This document shows positions 3,865 through 22,597 of a DNA stretch of 64,000 nt, one piece after another (position 1 is the stretch's first letter; every line of letters begins with the position of its first letter). The stretch lies in NCBI RefSeq assembly GCF_053078305.1, contig NZ_CP166879.1; one strand, written 5' to 3'. Below the pieces are notes generated by a model. The model made no database searches. It was not told the origin of the DNA and saw nothing but the letters and a program-made list of their open reading frames with translations. Both the position numbers and the translations under genes were made by a program.

Positions 3865-5477
<1,613 letters not shown>

Positions 5478-7143: not shown

Positions 7144-8721
7144 ATGACGGAAAACATTCATAAGCATCGCATCCTCATTCTGGACTTCGGTTCTCAGTAC
7201 ACTCAACTGGTTGCGCGCCGCGTGCGTGAGCTGGGTGTTTACTGCGAACTGTGGGCGTGGGATGTGACAGAAGCACAAATTCGTGACTTCAATCCAAGCG
7301 GCATTATTCTTTCCGGCGGCCCGGAAAGTACTACTGAAGAAAACAGTCCGCGTGCGCCGCAGTATGTCTTTGAAGCAGGCGTACCGGTATTCGGCGTTTG
7401 CTATGGCATGCAGACCATGGCAATGCAGTTGGGCGGTCACGTTGAAGCCTCTAACGAACGTGAATTTGGCTACGCGCAGGTTGAAGTCGTAAACGACAGC
7501 GCACTGGTTCGCGGTATCGAAGATGCGCTGACCGCAGACGGTAAACCGCTGCTCGATGTCTGGATGAGCCACGGCGATAAAGTTACCGCTATCCCGTCCG
7601 ACTTCGTCACCGTAGCCAGCACCGAAAGCTGCCCGTTTGCCATTATGGCTAACGAAGAAAAACGCTTCTATGGCGTACAGTTCCACCCGGAAGTGACTCA
7701 CACCCGCCAGGGTATGCGCATGCTGGAGCGTTTTGTGCGTGATATCTGCCAGTGTGAAGCCCTGTGGACGCCAGCGAAAATTATCGACGATGCTGTAGCT
7801 CGCATCCGCGAGCAGGTAGGCGACGATAAAGTCATCCTCGGCCTCTCTGGTGGTGTGGATTCCTCCGTAACCGCAATGCTGCTGCACCGCGCTATCGGTA
7901 AAAACCTGACTTGCGTATTCGTCGACAACGGCCTGCTGCGTCTCAACGAAGCAGAGCAGGTTCTGGATATGTTTGGCGATCACTTTGGTCTTAACATTGT
8001 TCACGTACCGGCAGAAGATCGCTTCCTGTCAGCGCTGGCTGGCGAAAACGATCCGGAAGCAAAACGTAAAATCATCGGTCGCGTTTTCGTTGAAGTATTC
8101 GATGAAGAAGCGCTGAAACTGGAAGACGTGAAGTGGCTGGCACAGGGCACCATCTACCCTGACGTTATCGAATCTGCGGCGTCTGCAACCGGTAAAGCAC
8201 ACGTCATCAAATCTCACCACAACGTGGGCGGCCTGCCGAAAGAGATGAAGATGGGCCTGGTTGAACCGCTGAAAGAGCTGTTCAAAGACGAAGTGCGTAA
8301 GATTGGTCTGGAGCTGGGTCTACCGTACGACATGCTGTACCGTCACCCGTTCCCGGGACCAGGCCTTGGCGTTCGTGTTCTGGGTGAAGTGAAGAAAGAG
8401 TACTGTGACCTGCTGCGCCGTGCTGACGCCATCTTCATTGAAGAACTGCGTAAAGCGGATCTGTACGACAAAGTCAGCCAGGCGTTCACCGTCTTCCTGC
8501 CAGTACGTTCCGTTGGCGTAATGGGCGATGGTCGTAAGTATGACTGGGTTGTCTCTCTGCGTGCTGTCGAAACCATCGACTTTATGACCGCACACTGGGC
8601 GCATCTGCCGTACGATTTCCTCGGTCGCGTTTCCAACCGCATTATCAATGAAGTGAACGGTATTTCCCGCGTGGTGTATGACATCAGCGGCAAGCCGCCA
8701 GCTACCATTGAGTGGGAGTGA
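7144..8721 (+). CDS. guaA: GMP synthase (glutamine-hydrolysing)
   Basis: 525 aa, class-I GATase N-terminus, [10 protein letters not shown]-loop. Confidence 0.96.
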
Positions 8722-9105: not shown

Positions 9106-10386
9106 ATGGCGATTAACGGAGTGGACGGTGTTAGCGCAGTCACCGTGGATGAACTACTCAAGCAAGGCCTTCGGATACCGAACTATCAACGCCCATACAG
9201 TTGGGAAGTATCGACCGCTCTACAACTGGTGGATGATCTCAGCGAAGCTCTTCGAGATACCGAAAGAAAAGATATTCCCTATGTTTTGGGTGCAATCATT
9301 CTTCACGATGATGGTGAGTATCTCAATGTAGTCGACGGACAGCAACGTCTGCTGACTTTGCGAATGATTCTTGCGGCCTTAGATCCGATAAATCACCAAA
9401 TTTCGGTGTCTGGTAACAGAGAAACCTCTGTCTCCCTGGTTTGGATAGAGCTTCAAAGGCGCCTGTCGCAGTTGGAAGATAAAAAAGAATTTTTGGATTT
9501 TATCTGTCACAAATGTCAGTTGGTGCGTATTGTGACGGACGATATTGATGAGGCATTCCGTGTCTTTGATTCCCAGAACTATCGCGGCAAACCGCTTGCC
9601 CCTCATGACTTGCTCAAAGCACACCACCTGCGCGAAATGCACGATGAGTCCGCTGCTATGAAAGTGGCTGTCGTTGAGGCTTGGGAAGCCGTAAATGATG
9701 AGGATCTGGACAGGCTTTTTTCTACTTTTTTATACCGGATATCCAAGTGGTCACGAGGAGAAAGCTCGCTCGAATTTGCTATTCGGGACATCGGTATGTT
9801 CAAGGGAATTTCATCACGATCCCACAGATCATTTTCGCCAAATCTGCGATATCACCTTGCAGCACAAGCCGCTATGCCACTTCTAAGTGCATGGGCGGTG
9901 TCCTCGACACATGATGCTCGAAATGCCGGGCGCAGCCGCTTTCAGCTTGATGCCCCGATAATCGCTGGGCGCTCATTTTTCGAGATGGTGGCATTCATGC
10001 TTGACGAATTGAAGATACTGGAAAAAGAGGTTATCGACAAAGGTTTCAAAAACTTTGGCCCATCTCAAAGTCGCTACCGCTACGTGTACGAATTGTTCAT
10101 TGCCGCTCTGCTTTGCTATACAAACAAGTTTGGCGATGAAGATGTGGATGAAGTGCGAAATAGGTTATTCGCATGGGCATATGCCTTGCGGGTCGAGTTA
10201 CTTCGTGTGCAATTTGTATCTGCTGACAACCGAGCTCGAGGTAAAAACGATGCAAATAAATCGCCTTTTGTTTTGCTACGCAACGCGATGACTGGAAGTG
10301 TTGTCCGCAAACTTCCAATAGCAAGTCAGCCATACAACGATAACCACGAAAAGGAACTCATTGCTTTTATCAAGGGGCTGCAATGA
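9106..10386 (+). CDS. DUF262 (ParB/Srx-like NTPase, GmrS-like) protein; accessory gene A
   Basis: 426 aa; IPNYQRPYSW motif and DGQQR (nt 9334..9348); later FRVFDSQNYRGKPL motif; no HNH/His-Me motif seen in the C-terminal ~270 aa; ATG 9106 with GGGA RBS; stop overlaps the next start (ATGA at 10383..10386). Confidence 0.8.
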   Translation: MAINGVDGVSAVTVDELLKQGLRIPNYQRPYSWEVSTALQLVDDLSEALRDTERKDIPYVLGAIILHDDGEYLNVVDGQQRLLTLRMILAALDPINHQISVSGNRETSVSLVWIELQRRLSQLEDKKEFLDFICHKCQLVRIVTDDIDEAFRVFDSQNYRGKPLAPHDLLKAHHLREMHDESAAMKVAVVEAWEAVNDEDLDRLFSTFLYRISKWSRGESSLEFAIRDIGMFKGISSRSHRSFSPNLRYHLAAQAAMPLLSAWAVSSTHDARNAGRSRFQLDAPIIAGRSFFEMVAFMLDELKILEKEVIDKGFKNFGPSQSRYRYVYELFIAALLCYTNKFGDEDVDEVRNRLFAWAYALRVELLRVQFVSADNRARGKNDANKSPFVLLRNAMTGSVVRKLPIASQPYNDNHEKELIAFIKGLQ

Positions 10387-12335
10387 GCAAGAAGGAGTTG
10401 AAACCCGAACTGCTAACAGTAGGCAAGCTATTCACGGACAATTATCTGATTCCTATTTATCAACGGAACTATGCTTGGCGGGCCGAACAGATTGAGCAAC
10501 TTATCAGCGATATTCAAGACTCGGTTGTTGGGGGCCAGGACGACTATTTTCTTGGAAACCTTGTTGTAATCAAGCGGGGTAGAGAGGACGAGTTCGAGGT
10601 CATAGATGGACAACAACGACTTACAACCCTCTATCTGCTTCTGACCTTCCTGGAGCAAGACGGTGAGGGTGGGAAGCCGTCGATTGGCCATGCAGGCCAC
10701 TTGCAATATGAGTCGCGTGCACGGGCAACGGAAGCCCTGCGGCGAGTAGCACAGGAGGCGGCTAAGGGGCACGTCCGACCGCAGGGCTCCACGAGTAATG
10801 CAGATGCTGGCATCCATGAAGGCTACAGCATCATCAATCAGTTCTTCAAACAAAATGAAACCCTTAATTGCTCACGCGAAAAATTCTCCGATTTCTTGCT
10901 AACGAAGGTTACTGTCGTCCGTGCCTCGCTGCCACCCAATACAGATCTCAATCGCTACTTCGAGATCATGAACACTCGTGGGCAGCAACTCAAGCAGGTT
11001 GATATTGTTAAGGCTCGCCTGATGAGCAAGCTGCCCAATCAATATGAACGCGAATGCTTCGCCTGGGTTTGGGATGCCTGTGCTGAGATGGATTCTTATG
11101 TCCAGATGTCTCTGACCCGTGGTGACACCAGTTTGCGAAACAAAGTATTTGGCGATGAATGGTCCTGGCTGGAGGTGACCAGCTTCGCGTCGTTAATGGA
11201 AAGTCGTCCGCAATCCGGCATCAATTCTTCAAGGCAATCCTCCGAAGGGGTATCGTTGTCCTTGGATGAGGCGTTGTCAAAATACGCTAAAGAGATCGAG
11301 TCAAATTCCACTGAAGACGAGGGCAACGAGCGGTTTCGTTCGACTATTGAGTTTCCGGCCTTTCTGCTACACGTTCTAAGAATTATGAAAGGCGATGAGG
11401 TCGAAGACGAAGGCCAGCTTGACGACAAACGCCTCATCAAGTCATTTGACGACGCTGTAAATAATGTACCCGATGCTAAAGCCGATTGGGTGCGTAACTT
11501 TACATTCATGCTCCTCAAGTGCCGCAACCTCTTCGATGGCTTCATTTTGAAGCGTCAATTCACGGCGAACATCGGTGACGATGGCGATTGGTCTCTCCAG
11601 CGATTGAAGAAAGGCGGCGCGGACAAGAAGCCAACCCCGACGTATATCCATGTTTTCTCGGCCAGCAATGGAAACTTAGAGGAGGACGGCGGTGCTGACC
11701 CACATACCCGAGATGTATTGCTGCTTCAGTCCATGCTTCGGATAACCTACACTTCTCCGCGAACGATGCACTGGATTACCAAAGTTCTTCGCTGGCTATC
11801 CGTCAAAGCCCCTCAAGACGCGAAACATGCGGATCTTGCCGATTTGTTGAAGGGGTATGCCCGCAGCAAGGTCAAAGAGACATTCCCCTTTGAGGAAGAT
11901 CAGCAACCACAAGGGTTTGGTATCAGCCGCATCGTCTTTTCGTATCTCGACTATCTTCTGTTGAGCGATTCCTCAAAACGAGATTTCAAATTTCAGTTCA
12001 GAACTTCCATTGAGCACTTTTATCCACAGCATCCGGACAAAGAACAGTCGGGCGCGGTTGTTTCAGGTTCTAGCCTTAACCTGCTTGGCAACCTTGCGCT
12101 CGTAAGCGTCAGCGCGAACTCAAAATTCAGCAATAGCCTTCCCAGAGCGAAGGCCGAAAACTTCAAGGATACGATTGAACTTCAAAGTCCCAAGCTCAAG
12201 AGAATGGCGGAAATCACTCGAAATACAAGCTGGGACGATCAGCAGATAACAGCTCATCATGAAGAGATGGTGACATTGCTTCGTGATGATGTAAGTCTGG
12301 TGGAGGCAAGCGGAAGATCCTACCCGGGGCGTTGA
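10383..12335 (+). CDS. DUF262-DUF1524 protein (GmrSD/SspE/BrxU-family type IV restriction endonuclease-like); accessory gene B
   Basis: 650 aa; N-terminal IPIYQRNYAW plus DGQQR (10605..10619) plus FEIMNTRGQQL; C-terminal His-Me finger motifs SIEHFYPQHP (12009..12038) and NLLGNLALVSVSANSKFSN (about 12072..12128). Confidence 0.85.
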   Translation: MSKKELKPELLTVGKLFTDNYLIPIYQRNYAWRAEQIEQLISDIQDSVVGGQDDYFLGNLVVIKRGREDEFEVIDGQQRLTTLYLLLTFLEQDGEGGKPSIGHAGHLQYESRARATEALRRVAQEAAKGHVRPQGSTSNADAGIHEGYSIINQFFKQNETLNCSREKFSDFLLTKVTVVRASLPPNTDLNRYFEIMNTRGQQLKQVDIVKARLMSKLPNQYERECFAWVWDACAEMDSYVQMSLTRGDTSLRNKVFGDEWSWLEVTSFASLMESRPQSGINSSRQSSEGVSLSLDEALSKYAKEIESNSTEDEGNERFRSTIEFPAFLLHVLRIMKGDEVEDEGQLDDKRLIKSFDDAVNNVPDAKADWVRNFTFMLLKCRNLFDGFILKRQFTANIGDDGDWSLQRLKKGGADKKPTPTYIHVFSASNGNLEEDGGADPHTRDVLLLQSMLRITYTSPRTMHWITKVLRWLSVKAPQDAKHADLADLLKGYARSKVKETFPFEEDQQPQGFGISRIVFSYLDYLLLSDSSKRDFKFQFRTSIEHFYPQHPDKEQSGAVVSGSSLNLLGNLALVSVSANSKFSNSLPRAKAENFKDTIELQSPKLKRMAEITRNTSWDDQQITAHHEEMVTLLRDDVSLVEASGRSYPGR

Positions 12336-13760: not shown

Positions 13761-14059
13761 TATTCCTTGTTATACACATTACGAAAAATAAGACATTTAA
13801 GATCATCAAAAGAGGAAAGTAAATGTATTGCGTATAAAGGGATAGATTAAATTTATTAAAATTCACGTGGGGAATAATTTATGAAAACACATCATTACAA
13901 CATATATATTAATTTTGCAGCCAAACAGGATAAACATCAGTCAGGACAAAGACGTAAAATTTAAGATGAAAGAATATCTGCCGCTTTGATAATTCCAAAG
14001 AGCAAAAGCATCCGACAGCGAAGCGCCGTTATGTTCTGTGAAAGTGGAGAAGGTAACCG

Positions 14060-14251
14060 CTAACGTTGTACCGGTGATTCGACGGAGAGTGTGGATTGCT
14101 GAGCTTCTTTTTTGCTCTGATGGTGCTGCCAGGCACCGACGGACGAGTAGATAAAACGGCCAAAGAAGAAGATAAAGCTGATGAGCAGTACGATACGGGT
14201 CATGCGACTGTTAAATCGGTGTCGTTTTCGCATACTGGTTGCCTGACTCAC
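14060..14251 (-). CDS. yfgG: YfgG, small membrane protein
   Basis: 63 aa from GTG (57 aa from the internal ATG at 14233), one hydrophobic helix; recognised as YfgG. Confidence 0.7.
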   Translation of the reverse strand: MSQATSMRKRHRFNSRMTRIVLLISFIFFFGRFIYSSVGAWQHHQSKKEAQQSTLSVESPVQR

Positions 14252-14461
14252 AAAAGGTTCCTTGAAGTATGTCCCACGCTGTGGACGGTACTTACATTAA
14301 GGCACAACAGGACAAAATGGTCAATTCTTCGTTATGTAAAAAAGCGTCAGTGGATACATATTTTAATGTTATGGAAGTTAATTTAATTATTTACAATGAT
14401 GATGTAATAATGATGAATTAACATGATAAACGTAATAATTCATTAATCAGGGTTATTTTGT

Positions 14462-14475
14462 TTGATATATATCAA
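14462..14475 (+). promoter_or_regulatory. consensus FNR/CRP-family box upstream of pdeF
   Basis: TTGATATATATCAA is a perfect TTGAT-N4-ATCAA palindrome; TAGAAT -10-like hexamer at 14497..14502. Confidence 0.55.
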
Positions 14476-14602
14476 TTGGAACTTTCATATGACACTTAGA
14501 ATCAATGCTCTCTATAGTGATGAATAATCATCATTCGAAGTCAGGTGGGATGCCTGTCTGAATACACCTCCTTCAGGATGTGGGGGATTCTGCTGAGCAT
14601 CT

Positions 14603-16846
14603 ATGAAACTGAATGCAACTTATATAAAAATACGTGATAAATGGTGGGGGCTTCCGCTGTTCCTGCCTTCTTTAATCTTGCCCATTTTCGCCCACATTAA
14701 TACTTTCGCGCATATTTCTTCCGGTGAGGTTTTTCTCTTTTATCTGCCTTTGGCACTGATGATCAGCATGATGATGTTTTTCAGCTGGGCGGCATTGCCA
14801 GGGATCGCCTTAGGGATTTTTGTCCGCAAATATGCAGAGCTTGGTTTTTACGAAACGCTCTCATTAACGGCTAATTTTATTATCATTATCATTCTCTGTT
14901 GGGGCGGTTACAGGGTCTTTACTCCCCGCCGTAACAACGTTTCACATGGTGATACCCGTTTAATTTCCCAGCGTATATTCTGGCAGATTGTGTTTCCTGC
15001 AACGCTGTTTCTGATACTTTTCCAGTTTGCTGCGTTTGTAGGATTACTGGCGAGCAGAGAAAATCTGGTCGGCGTCATGCCTTTTAACCTCGGGACCTTA
15101 ATCAATTATCAGGCCTTACTGGTGGGTAATCTGATCGGTGTCCCGCTGTGCTACTTCATCATTCGGGTAGTGCGAAATCCATTTTATTTACGTAGCTATT
15201 ATTCGCAATTAAAACAGCAGGTTGATGTCAAAGTCACCAAAAAAGAGTTCGCACTCTGGCTACTGGCATTAGGTGCTTTACTGTTGCTGTTATGCATGCC
15301 GTTAAATGAAAAAAGCACAATTTTTAGCACCAATTATACCTTGTCATTATTGCTGCCCCTGATGATGTGGGGAGCGATGCGCTATGGTTATAAGCTGATT
15401 TCGCTGCTCTGGGCGGTCGTGTTGATGATCAGCATCCACAGCTATCAAAATTACATTCCCATTTATCCTGGCTATACCACGCAGCTGACCATAACCTCCT
15501 CCAGTTATCTGGTATTCTCTTTTATTGTCAATTATATGGCTGTACTGGCAACCCGTCAGAGAACGGTAGTCAGACGCATTCAGCGGCTTGCGTATGTGGA
15601 CCCGGTGGTTCATCTGCCAAATGTTCGCGCCCTGAATCGCGCGTTGCGTGATGCCCCCTGGTCTGCGCTTTGTTATTTACGCATCCCTGGCATGGAAATG
15701 CTGGTTAAGAACTATGGCATCATGCTGCGGATTCAATACAAGCAAAAACTTTCTCACTGGCTGTCACCCTTGCTGGAACCGGGTGAAGATGTTTATCAGC
15801 TTTCGGGTAACGATCTCGCGCTGCGACTGAATACAGAATCGCACCAGGAGCGCATTGCCGCACTGGATAGCCATCTCAAGCAATTTCGTTTCTTTTGGGA
15901 TGGCATGCCGATGCAACCGCAGATTGGCGTCAGTTACTGCTATGTGCGCTCGCCAGTGAATCATATCTACCTGCTGCTGGGAGAGCTAAATACGGTCGCC
16001 GAACTTTCCATCGTGACCAACGCCCCGGAAAATATGCAGCGTCGCGGGGCAATGTATTTGCAACGCGAATTGAAAGATAAAGTCGCGATGATGAATCGAC
16101 TACAGCAGGCGCTGGAACACAACCATTTTTTCCTGATGGCCCAGCCGATTACCGGTATGCGTGGTGATGTTTACCATGAAATTCTTCTGCGCATGAAAGG
16201 TGAGAATGATGAACTGATCGGCCCCGATAGCTTCTTGCCGGTCGCGCACGAATTTGGTTTATCGTCGAGTATCGACATGTGGGTCATTGAGCATACGCTG
16301 CAATTTATGGCTGAAAACAGAGCGAAGATGCCCGCTCACCGTTTTGCTATTAATCTGTCTCCAACCTCGGTATGTCAGGCTCGTTTTCCTGTTGAAGTCA
16401 GTCAGTTGCTGGATAAATATCAGATTGAAGCGTGGCAACTTATTTTTGAAGTCACCGAAAGTAATGCTCTGACCAATGTTAAGCAGGCGCAAATCACCTT
16501 GCAGCATCTTCAGGAATTAGGCTGCCAGATTGCGATTGATGATTTCGGCACCGGCTACGCCAGCTATGCGCGGCTTAAAAATGTGAATGCCGATCTGCTT
16601 AAAATTGACGGCAGTTTTATCCGCAATATTGTGTCAAATAGTCTGGATTATCAGATAGTGGCATCGATTTGCCACCTGGCGCGAATGAAGAAAATGCGGG
16701 TAGTGGCAGAGTACGTTGAAAACGAAGAGATCCGCGAGGCGGTGCTCTCTTTGGGGATCGATTATATGCAGGGTTATCTTATTGGTAAGCCGCAGCCGTT
16801 AATTGATACGTTGAATGAAATCGAACCCATTCGCGAAAGTGCCTGA
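14603..16846 (+). CDS. pdeF: c-di-GMP phosphodiesterase PdeF (MASE1 - degenerate GGDEF - EAL)
   Basis: 747 aa, multi-TM N-terminus, C-terminal EAL domain; recognised as YfgF/PdeF. Confidence 0.93.
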   Translation: MKLNATYIKIRDKWWGLPLFLPSLILPIFAHINTFAHISSGEVFLFYLPLALMISMMMFFSWAALPGIALGIFVRKYAELGFYETLSLTANFIIIIILCWGGYRVFTPRRNNVSHGDTRLISQRIFWQIVFPATLFLILFQFAAFVGLLASRENLVGVMPFNLGTLINYQALLVGNLIGVPLCYFIIRVVRNPFYLRSYYSQLKQQVDVKVTKKEFALWLLALGALLLLLCMPLNEKSTIFSTNYTLSLLLPLMMWGAMRYGYKLISLLWAVVLMISIHSYQNYIPIYPGYTTQLTITSSSYLVFSFIVNYMAVLATRQRTVVRRIQRLAYVDPVVHLPNVRALNRALRDAPWSALCYLRIPGMEMLVKNYGIMLRIQYKQKLSHWLSPLLEPGEDVYQLSGNDLALRLNTESHQERIAALDSHLKQFRFFWDGMPMQPQIGVSYCYVRSPVNHIYLLLGELNTVAELSIVTNAPENMQRRGAMYLQRELKDKVAMMNRLQQALEHNHFFLMAQPITGMRGDVYHEILLRMKGENDELIGPDSFLPVAHEFGLSSSIDMWVIEHTLQFMAENRAKMPAHRFAINLSPTSVCQARFPVEVSQLLDKYQIEAWQLIFEVTESNALTNVKQAQITLQHLQELGCQIAIDDFGTGYASYARLKNVNADLLKIDGSFIRNIVSNSLDYQIVASICHLARMKKMRVVAEYVENEEIREAVLSLGIDYMQGYLIGKPQPLIDTLNEIEPIRESA

Positions 16847-22422: not shown

Positions 22423-22597
22423 GACTGCTTTACACAACCTTTTTGCACGTCTTTTCCCCAGGCGCGCGGCGAAAGAAGATTTGTGCCAGGGCAAAGGTTA
22501 GTTTTCGGATGGAATAATCTTCTTTCATAACCATTTGAATATAAAATAACTTTATCTCAAACCGTTATCATTTTGACTAAAGTCAACGAAAATAATA

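Follow-up and report, generated by a model that had tools for sequence, protein, structure and literature searches.

The yfgF (pdeF) gene of Escherichia coli K-12 is described by the Green laboratory as activated by FNR and maximally expressed under anaerobic conditions, with reference to Lacey, Partridge & Green 2010 (PMC3718329). In that description the yfgF promoter is class II FNR-dependent, with an FNR box at -41.5 and the same -10 element that we read here (PMC3718329), and the RegulonDB curation table holds the entry 'FNR yfgF Activator Anaerobiosis'. A genome-wide study with a delta-fnr control found an FNR ChIP-seq/ChIP-chip peak at yfgF/yfgG (Myers 2013 Table S5, PMC3688515). In the same study TTGATATATATCAA is listed as the predicted site below this peak (peak '+'), with a score of 16.08 that is among the highest shown and without nucleoid-protein overlap (Table S6), and yfgF is given as the estimated target of the peak, together with one known transcription start site (TSS), for which Lacey 2010 is cited (Table S9). 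According to the papers that cite them, Lacey et al. 2010 essentially performed both the anaerobic reporter fusions in fnr mutants and the 5' end mapping; the mapped yfgF TSS and the reporter data are used here in the form in which the citing papers report them.

We analysed a stretch of 64 kb, in the following called the window, which corresponds to the reverse complement of K-12 MG1655 around b2503. The genes guaA, yfgI, yfgH and yfgG are found on one side of the promoter and pdeF, ppx and ppk on the other. A segment of 501 bp spanning the promoter region (14200-14700) was matched in 5422 of the 5426 complete E. coli genomes, and pdeF is annotated at its counterpart among the matches listed. 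A Pfam search with the 747-aa ORF returned MASE1 and EAL domains. Together with the pdeF annotation in the matching genomes this bore out the initial annotation, which had named the downstream gene as pdeF, encoding a c-di-GMP phosphodiesterase. In the 351-bp intergenic region between yfgG and pdeF a single difference to K-12 MG1655 was detected, at position 14480 (A here, T in K-12). The position, at about -30 of the promoter and 5 nt 3' of the FNR box, belongs to neither the box nor the -10 element, and about half of the complete E. coli genomes carry the A here. The features of the promoter region are collected in the table.

Features of the yfgG-pdeF region, in window coordinates.
Feature	Position	Strand	Remarks
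FNR box	14462-14475	.	TTGATATATATCAA; 10/10 specified positions of TTGAT-N4-ATCAA
-10 hexamer TAGAAT of the class II promoter	14497..14502	+	21 nt 3' of the box; named as yfgF -10 element in PMC3718329
Predicted transcription start	14510	+	Deduced from the published -41.5 box position; 14509-14511 all fit
pdeF 5' untranslated leader, ~93 nt	14510..14602	+	Derived from the predicted start and the start codon
pdeF (yfgF) coding sequence	14603..16846	+	747 aa; MASE1, degenerate GGDEF, EAL; c-di-GMP phosphodiesterase
Second consensus-type promoter ATGACA-18-TATAGT	14489..14518	+	Consensus scan, 10/12 matches; overlaps the class II core
AT-rich upstream region	14330..14461	.	About 23-25% GC
yfgG promoter, divergent (context, outside the FNR promoter)	14288..14324	-	-35 TTGACC 14319-14324, -10 CTTAAT 14296-14301, TSS near 14288

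The sequence read around the box and the downstream promoter was ...gttattttgtTTGATATATATCAAttggaactttcatatgacactTAGAATcaatgc..., in which the box has the 4-nt centre ATAT and AT-rich flanks. The box is placed in the intergenic region shared by yfgG and pdeF, and from its centre (14468.5) the distance to the pdeF ATG is 134.5 bp. The GC content of 14340-14461 was 23%, compared to 52% for the window. The initial annotation had described a perfect TTGAT-N4-ATCAA palindrome in AT-rich surroundings about 134 bp upstream of the pdeF ATG, with a TAGAAT hexamer at 14497..14502 in roughly class-II spacing, and each of these features was read as described.

On both strands of the window TTGATATATATCAA was the sole exact match to TTGAT-N4-ATCAA. 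To estimate the chance rate the 64-kb window was shuffled 100 times with dinucleotides preserved; 0.11 exact matches are expected by chance, and at least one was present in 11/100 shuffled windows. The bare occurrence of an exact box in 64 kb is thus weakly non-random and not remarkable alone. The importance of the box derives instead from its intergenic placement, its conservation across genera and the published FNR ChIP-seq occupancy. Boxes with one mismatch were found at two other positions in the window (51116 and 61236), both within long ORFs. The window also contains two other sites listed under FNR peaks by Myers 2013, at 5448-5461 and 22573-22586. The former, GTGAGCGAGATCAA, is the site in the guaB/xseA spacer, where an overlap with a CRP site is described (Myers 2013), and the latter is the reverse complement of TTGACTTTAGTCAA, the site in the upp/purM spacer.

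With a start at 14510 the FNR box is centred at -41.5 and TAGAAT occupies -13..-8, and the sequence at -36..-31, AATTGG, is not a -35 hexamer. The arrangement of box and TAGAAT is the standard class II layout: the box, with 10/10 positions of the FNR consensus, reaches into the -35 region, and TAGAAT follows at the spacing required of a -10 hexamer. The overlapping ATGACA-18-TATAGT element was proposed from genomic SELEX as a 'constitutive' RpoD promoter of yfgF (PMC3946193). A start from this element would set the FNR box at about -56.5/-57.5, a non-canonical position, and the element is without conservation beyond Escherichia. The divergent yfgG promoter, TTGACC-17-CTTAAT, was taken from PMC3946193, and the yfgG TSS has been reported at 2627275 in older K-12 coordinates (PMC4447067). 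Older K-12 coordinates were converted to those of the window with an offset of 1978 bp between the K-12 versions, deduced from site coordinates. With the same deduced offset the FNR peak summits of Myers 2013 would fall at ~14417-14463 of the window, on or adjoining the box.

We also considered a structured leader for pdeF and rejected it. When the promoter and leader were compared to Rfam, no family was found at E <= 1 except a spurious lncRNA match, and with z = -0.36 the fold of the leader was no more stable than that of shuffled sequences. The leader contains one imperfect palindrome, TGATGAATAATCATCA (14519-14534), at +10..+25 of the predicted pdeF transcript. The sole stable hairpin of the leader is formed by this palindrome, which is conserved within Escherichia and absent in other genera.

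To follow the promoter beyond E. coli, orthologues were collected by a protein-guided scan using one genome per species, which returned full-length pdeF orthologues with 57-93% protein identity. The scan yielded other Escherichia lineages, Enterobacter asburiae, two Phytobacter species, several Kluyvera and another Enterobacteriaceae genome. The peptide patterns of the scan gave no Salmonella, Citrobacter or Klebsiella loci, and conservation in Salmonella is taken from PMC3718329 only. In all 13 orthologous loci (Escherichia, Enterobacter, Phytobacter, Kluyvera) TTGA-N6-TCAA was invariant, the box had 0-1 mismatches to the consensus and it was positioned 140-180 bp 5' of the start of the protein match, which is at or near the start codon. 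The box occurred as TTGATATATATCAA, TTGATATGCATCAA, TTGATGTGCATCAA, TTGATGTATATCAA, TTGACTCA[T/C]ATCAA and TTGATTTAAGTCAA. A TA[G/A]AAT hexamer followed exactly 21 nt 3' of the box in 13/13 loci. Almost complete divergence was seen in the non-Escherichia loci for the 21-nt spacer, for the central 4 nt of the box and for the leader. Since the half-sites, the hexamer and the spacing were kept while the rest diverged, selection has acted on the two half-sites and the hexamer as well as on the spacing between them, which is what is expected of a class II activator site. Purifying selection on the site in orthologous promoters supports a class II assignment but does not strictly define it.

Within the species the 61-nt promoter core was present in 5403 of the 5426 complete E. 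coli genomes, identical in 2696 and with one mismatch in 2707 (the K-12 allele included). In one E. coli strain, L73, an IS1X2 element (L081 2536-3428) separates the box from the -10 hexamer, its insertion point corresponding to 14486/14487 of the window. This insertion should uncouple pdeF from FNR in that genome.

Three other explanations for the palindrome were weighed. CRP is a paralogue of FNR and recognises related palindromes, and the initial annotation had pointed out that CRP shares the half-site and had called the identity of the factor inferred. Hybrid sites do exist, for example at pepT, and overlapping sites are described at guaB, ptsH and uxaB (Myers 2013, PMC3688515). If the site were a CRP site or a hybrid CRP/FNR site, pdeF would be controlled by carbon source and not by oxygen. 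When read in the CRP register the site is TTTGA-N6-TCAAT, which matches 7/10 core positions of TGTGA-N6-TCACA. Of the mismatches, the two in the inner core replace the G and the C of TGTGA/TCACA, the pair that reportedly discriminates CRP from FNR sites (work by Bell et al. 1989 and Spiro et al. 1990). At both positions the site has T/A, so that the CRP core including its G/C pair is not present and the statement of a half-site shared with CRP does not hold, and these T/A discriminators were invariant in 13/13 orthologues. The occupancy data in vivo are for FNR, with the delta-fnr control, and yfgF is outside the FNR peaks tabulated with other regulators such as CRP, its entry being 'Unknown' (Myers Table S9, PMC3688515). 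The identity of the factor accordingly rests on experiment, namely FNR ChIP-seq occupancy and published FNR-dependent expression. We rejected CRP as the main factor because the core matches at 7/10 positions with both discriminators wrong; CRP is unlikely to be the primary factor, and we regard control of pdeF by carbon source through this site as very improbable.

The FNR site could also act on the divergent yfgG, or on both genes, instead of pdeF, as the intergenic region of 351 bp is shared. Expression of yfgG was ~2.2-fold higher anaerobically in the wild type (ratio 0.45, Myers Table S12, PMC3688515), and in the part of the sigma-70 ChIP-seq table (S1) that was covered the only peak of the region is at the yfgG promoter. 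This peak is anaerobic and strong (2627279 in older K-12 coordinates) and is located on the yfgG promoter at 14252-14330, upstream of yfgG itself (14060-14251, minus strand). Against this, the centre of the box would be ~180 bp 5' of the reported yfgG TSS when coordinates are converted with the deduced offset, and FNR usually activates from -41.5 to about -61.5. This distance beyond the usual activating positions disfavours yfgG as the target. Moreover, Myers et al. assigned the peak to yfgF (PMC3688515), and the -10 hexamer at the 21-nt spacing faces pdeF in all genera. There is only a very small chance, in our estimate, that the site serves yfgG, alone or together with pdeF. We note that yfgG, though ~2.2-fold up anaerobically, is without an FNR site at the usual activating distance. 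Finally, the palindrome could be a chance product of AT-rich DNA, or an FNR site that is bound but functionless ('silent'). An exact match in 11/100 shuffled windows, the ATAT centre with AT-rich flanks and the lack of an FNR-dependent expression change in exponential glucose-minimal medium (Myers Table S9, PMC3688515) speak for such a view. It is countered by the half-sites and the spacing from box to hexamer, kept across four genera while neighbouring bases diverged, by the FNR ChIP-seq peak (Myers 2013), by the published FNR-dependent anaerobic expression of yfgF (PMC3718329; RegulonDB curation table) and by the ~4-fold O2-dependent regulation of yfgF in an hns stpA background (0.23, Myers 2013). 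We concluded that the palindrome is almost certainly neither accidental nor silent.

We therefore consider the palindrome to be the FNR operator of a class II, FNR-activated sigma-70 promoter of pdeF (yfgF), with a probability of roughly 0.93. FNR occupancy in vivo and expression dependent on FNR and anaerobiosis are published experiments; the sequence, the geometry and the conservation in four genera were observed here. Without oxygen FNR would keep its [4Fe-4S] cluster, dimerise and bind TTGATATATATCAA, ~41.5 bp 5' of the predicted start at about 14510, where it would replace a -35 element. Contacts between FNR and RNA polymerase are established for class II FNR promoters, and by analogy the bound FNR would contact the polymerase here and recruit it to the TAGAAT -10 element. 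The resulting transcript would consist of the ~93-nt leader followed by the coding sequence of the membrane-bound c-di-GMP phosphodiesterase PdeF. Oxygen would break the cluster and turn the promoter off. The level of transcription would additionally be set by H-NS/StpA on the AT-rich upstream DNA and by growth phase or temperature. The site couples oxygen sensing by FNR to c-di-GMP turnover, through which it bears on motility, on the cell surface and on how E. coli responds to peroxide. The expectation of the initial annotation, anaerobic and FNR-dependent expression of pdeF, agrees with the published work on E. coli K-12 yfgF.

The published data also show that FNR does not act alone at this promoter. 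In anaerobic exponential cultures in glucose-minimal medium at 37 C, FNR-dependent change of yfgF expression was absent, even though FNR gave a ChIP peak (Myers Table S9, PMC3688515). In an hns stpA mutant the average of the FNR peak rose from 0.35 to 1.68, and yfgF was O2-regulated only in this mutant, with an aerobic/anaerobic ratio of 0.23 (Myers Tables S7 and S11, PMC3688515). Because FNR is bound under these exponential conditions without an FNR-dependent change of yfgF, and O2 regulation emerges only when H-NS/StpA are absent, we concluded that FNR binding is necessary but not sufficient and that further input is needed at the pdeF promoter. The spacer between yfgG and pdeF has been flagged 'HNS' (Shimada 2014, PMC3946193). 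The AT-rich upstream region (14330-14461) is likely the substrate of H-NS/StpA, which would dampen FNR occupancy and anaerobic induction; the exact stretch, and with it the site of H-NS action, is where we infer it to be. In the part of Table S1 that was covered there was no sigma-70 ChIP-seq peak at the pdeF promoter. An E-sigma-S ChIP region has been reported on the yfgG side of the spacer, at the yfgG promoter (PMC4447067).

With its perfect consensus box and bound FNR, the class II promoter is still almost inactive during exponential growth at 37 C. It is conceivable, although we think it rather doubtful, that an extra Escherichia-specific element gates the activation by FNR, either the TGATGAATAATCATCA palindrome or H-NS/StpA nucleation on the 23%-GC tract. 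If so, pdeF would illustrate 'primed but gated' FNR regulation in which a co-regulator takes part. The TGATGAATAATCATCA palindrome could be a repressor operator. To the eye, TGATGAATAATCATCA and the upstream AATGATGA repeats resemble Fur sites, and a Fur box was tried and rejected: the best score against the 19-bp Fur consensus GATAATGATAATCATTATC was 12/19, no better than that of shuffled sequence, as 942 of 2000 shuffled intergenic regions (47%) also reached it. A 2025 report on an avian pathogenic strain describes that BasR binds the yfgF promoter and represses it ~2.3-fold, and binding of BasR could be the gating input. When the intergenic region was inspected by eye for the BasR/PmrA box (C/T)TTAA(G/T)-N5-(C/T)TTAA(G/T), half-matches only were found. 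At 14395-14445 of the AT-rich tract, AATGATGATGTAA and AATGATGAATTAA are direct repeats spaced by 14 bp, and ATGAATTA...TAATTCAT is a perfect inverted repeat of 8 bp with a spacing of 15 nt. Chance in DNA of 23% GC may account for these repeats, or they may be binding sites of a nucleoid protein or BasR.

Several observations concern the wider locus. A 50-aa ORF at 14269-14421 (plus strand) in the AT-rich yfgG-pdeF spacer is a RefSeq 'hypothetical protein' (WP_000017552/WP_000017559). It overlaps the yfgG promoter and stops 41 bp short of the FNR box, and for these reasons it is probably an annotation artefact. From the gene coordinates alone, a length difference of 11 bp to K-12 is implied in the yfgH-yfgG spacer (13761-14059). 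An island of two genes (9106-12335, plus strand) between guaA (7144-8721) and yfgI is missing in K-12. The first gene (426 aa) contains GmrSD_N and DUF7834 and the second (650 aa) GmrSD_N and GmrSD_C. Since both match the PADLOC models HEC-06, Orf5 and SspE-like, the island is probably a type IV restriction-like defence module. The segment 9000-13300 was covered to at least 80% in 78 of the 5426 complete E. coli genomes. In strain E2865 prophage genes are found directly past yfgI, on the same side as the island here, which suggests a variable hotspot.

The closest described system is the class II yfgF promoter of E. coli K-12 (Lacey, Partridge & Green 2010, Microbiology 156:2873, as presented in PMC3718329), which is the same locus. 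Box, -10 hexamer and spacing are the same as published there (PMC3718329), with no difference of substance. The box analysed here is therefore already known as the published FNR site of the yfgF/pdeF promoter; the assignment is correct and not new. The link between FNR and pdeF has been in the literature since 2010, with ChIP-seq support from 2013. What our analysis adds is modest: the footprint of box and -10 element across genera, by which this architecture is conserved past Escherichia/Salmonella into Kluyvera, Phytobacter and Enterobacter, and the finding that an earlier call made from sequence only was accurate. For yfgF of Salmonella enterica (STM2503) an FNR box at -41.5 with an equally spaced -10 element is likewise described; the box, TTGAC--ATCAA, and the -10 element, TACAAT, each differ by one substitution (PMC3718329), and the TTGAC variant is also the form seen in Kluyvera. 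The class II promoters of yfiD, dmsA, narG, nirB and fnrS (with sites between -40.5 and -42.5; Myers 2013 Table 1) have in common a near-consensus TTGAT-N4-ATCAA at about -41.5. Like these canonical class II FNR promoters, pdeF combines a sigma-70 -10 element and anaerobic activation with no recognisable -35 hexamer. Unlike the class II promoters of Category 1, yfgF was without FNR-dependent change in exponential glucose-minimal medium (Myers 2013). It is among the peaks without a known co-regulator (Table S9), and its assignment to Category 5 is ours, made from the definitions in Myers 2013. A further difference to the canonical Category 1 promoters is that both FNR occupancy and the O2 response of yfgF go up when H-NS/StpA are removed.
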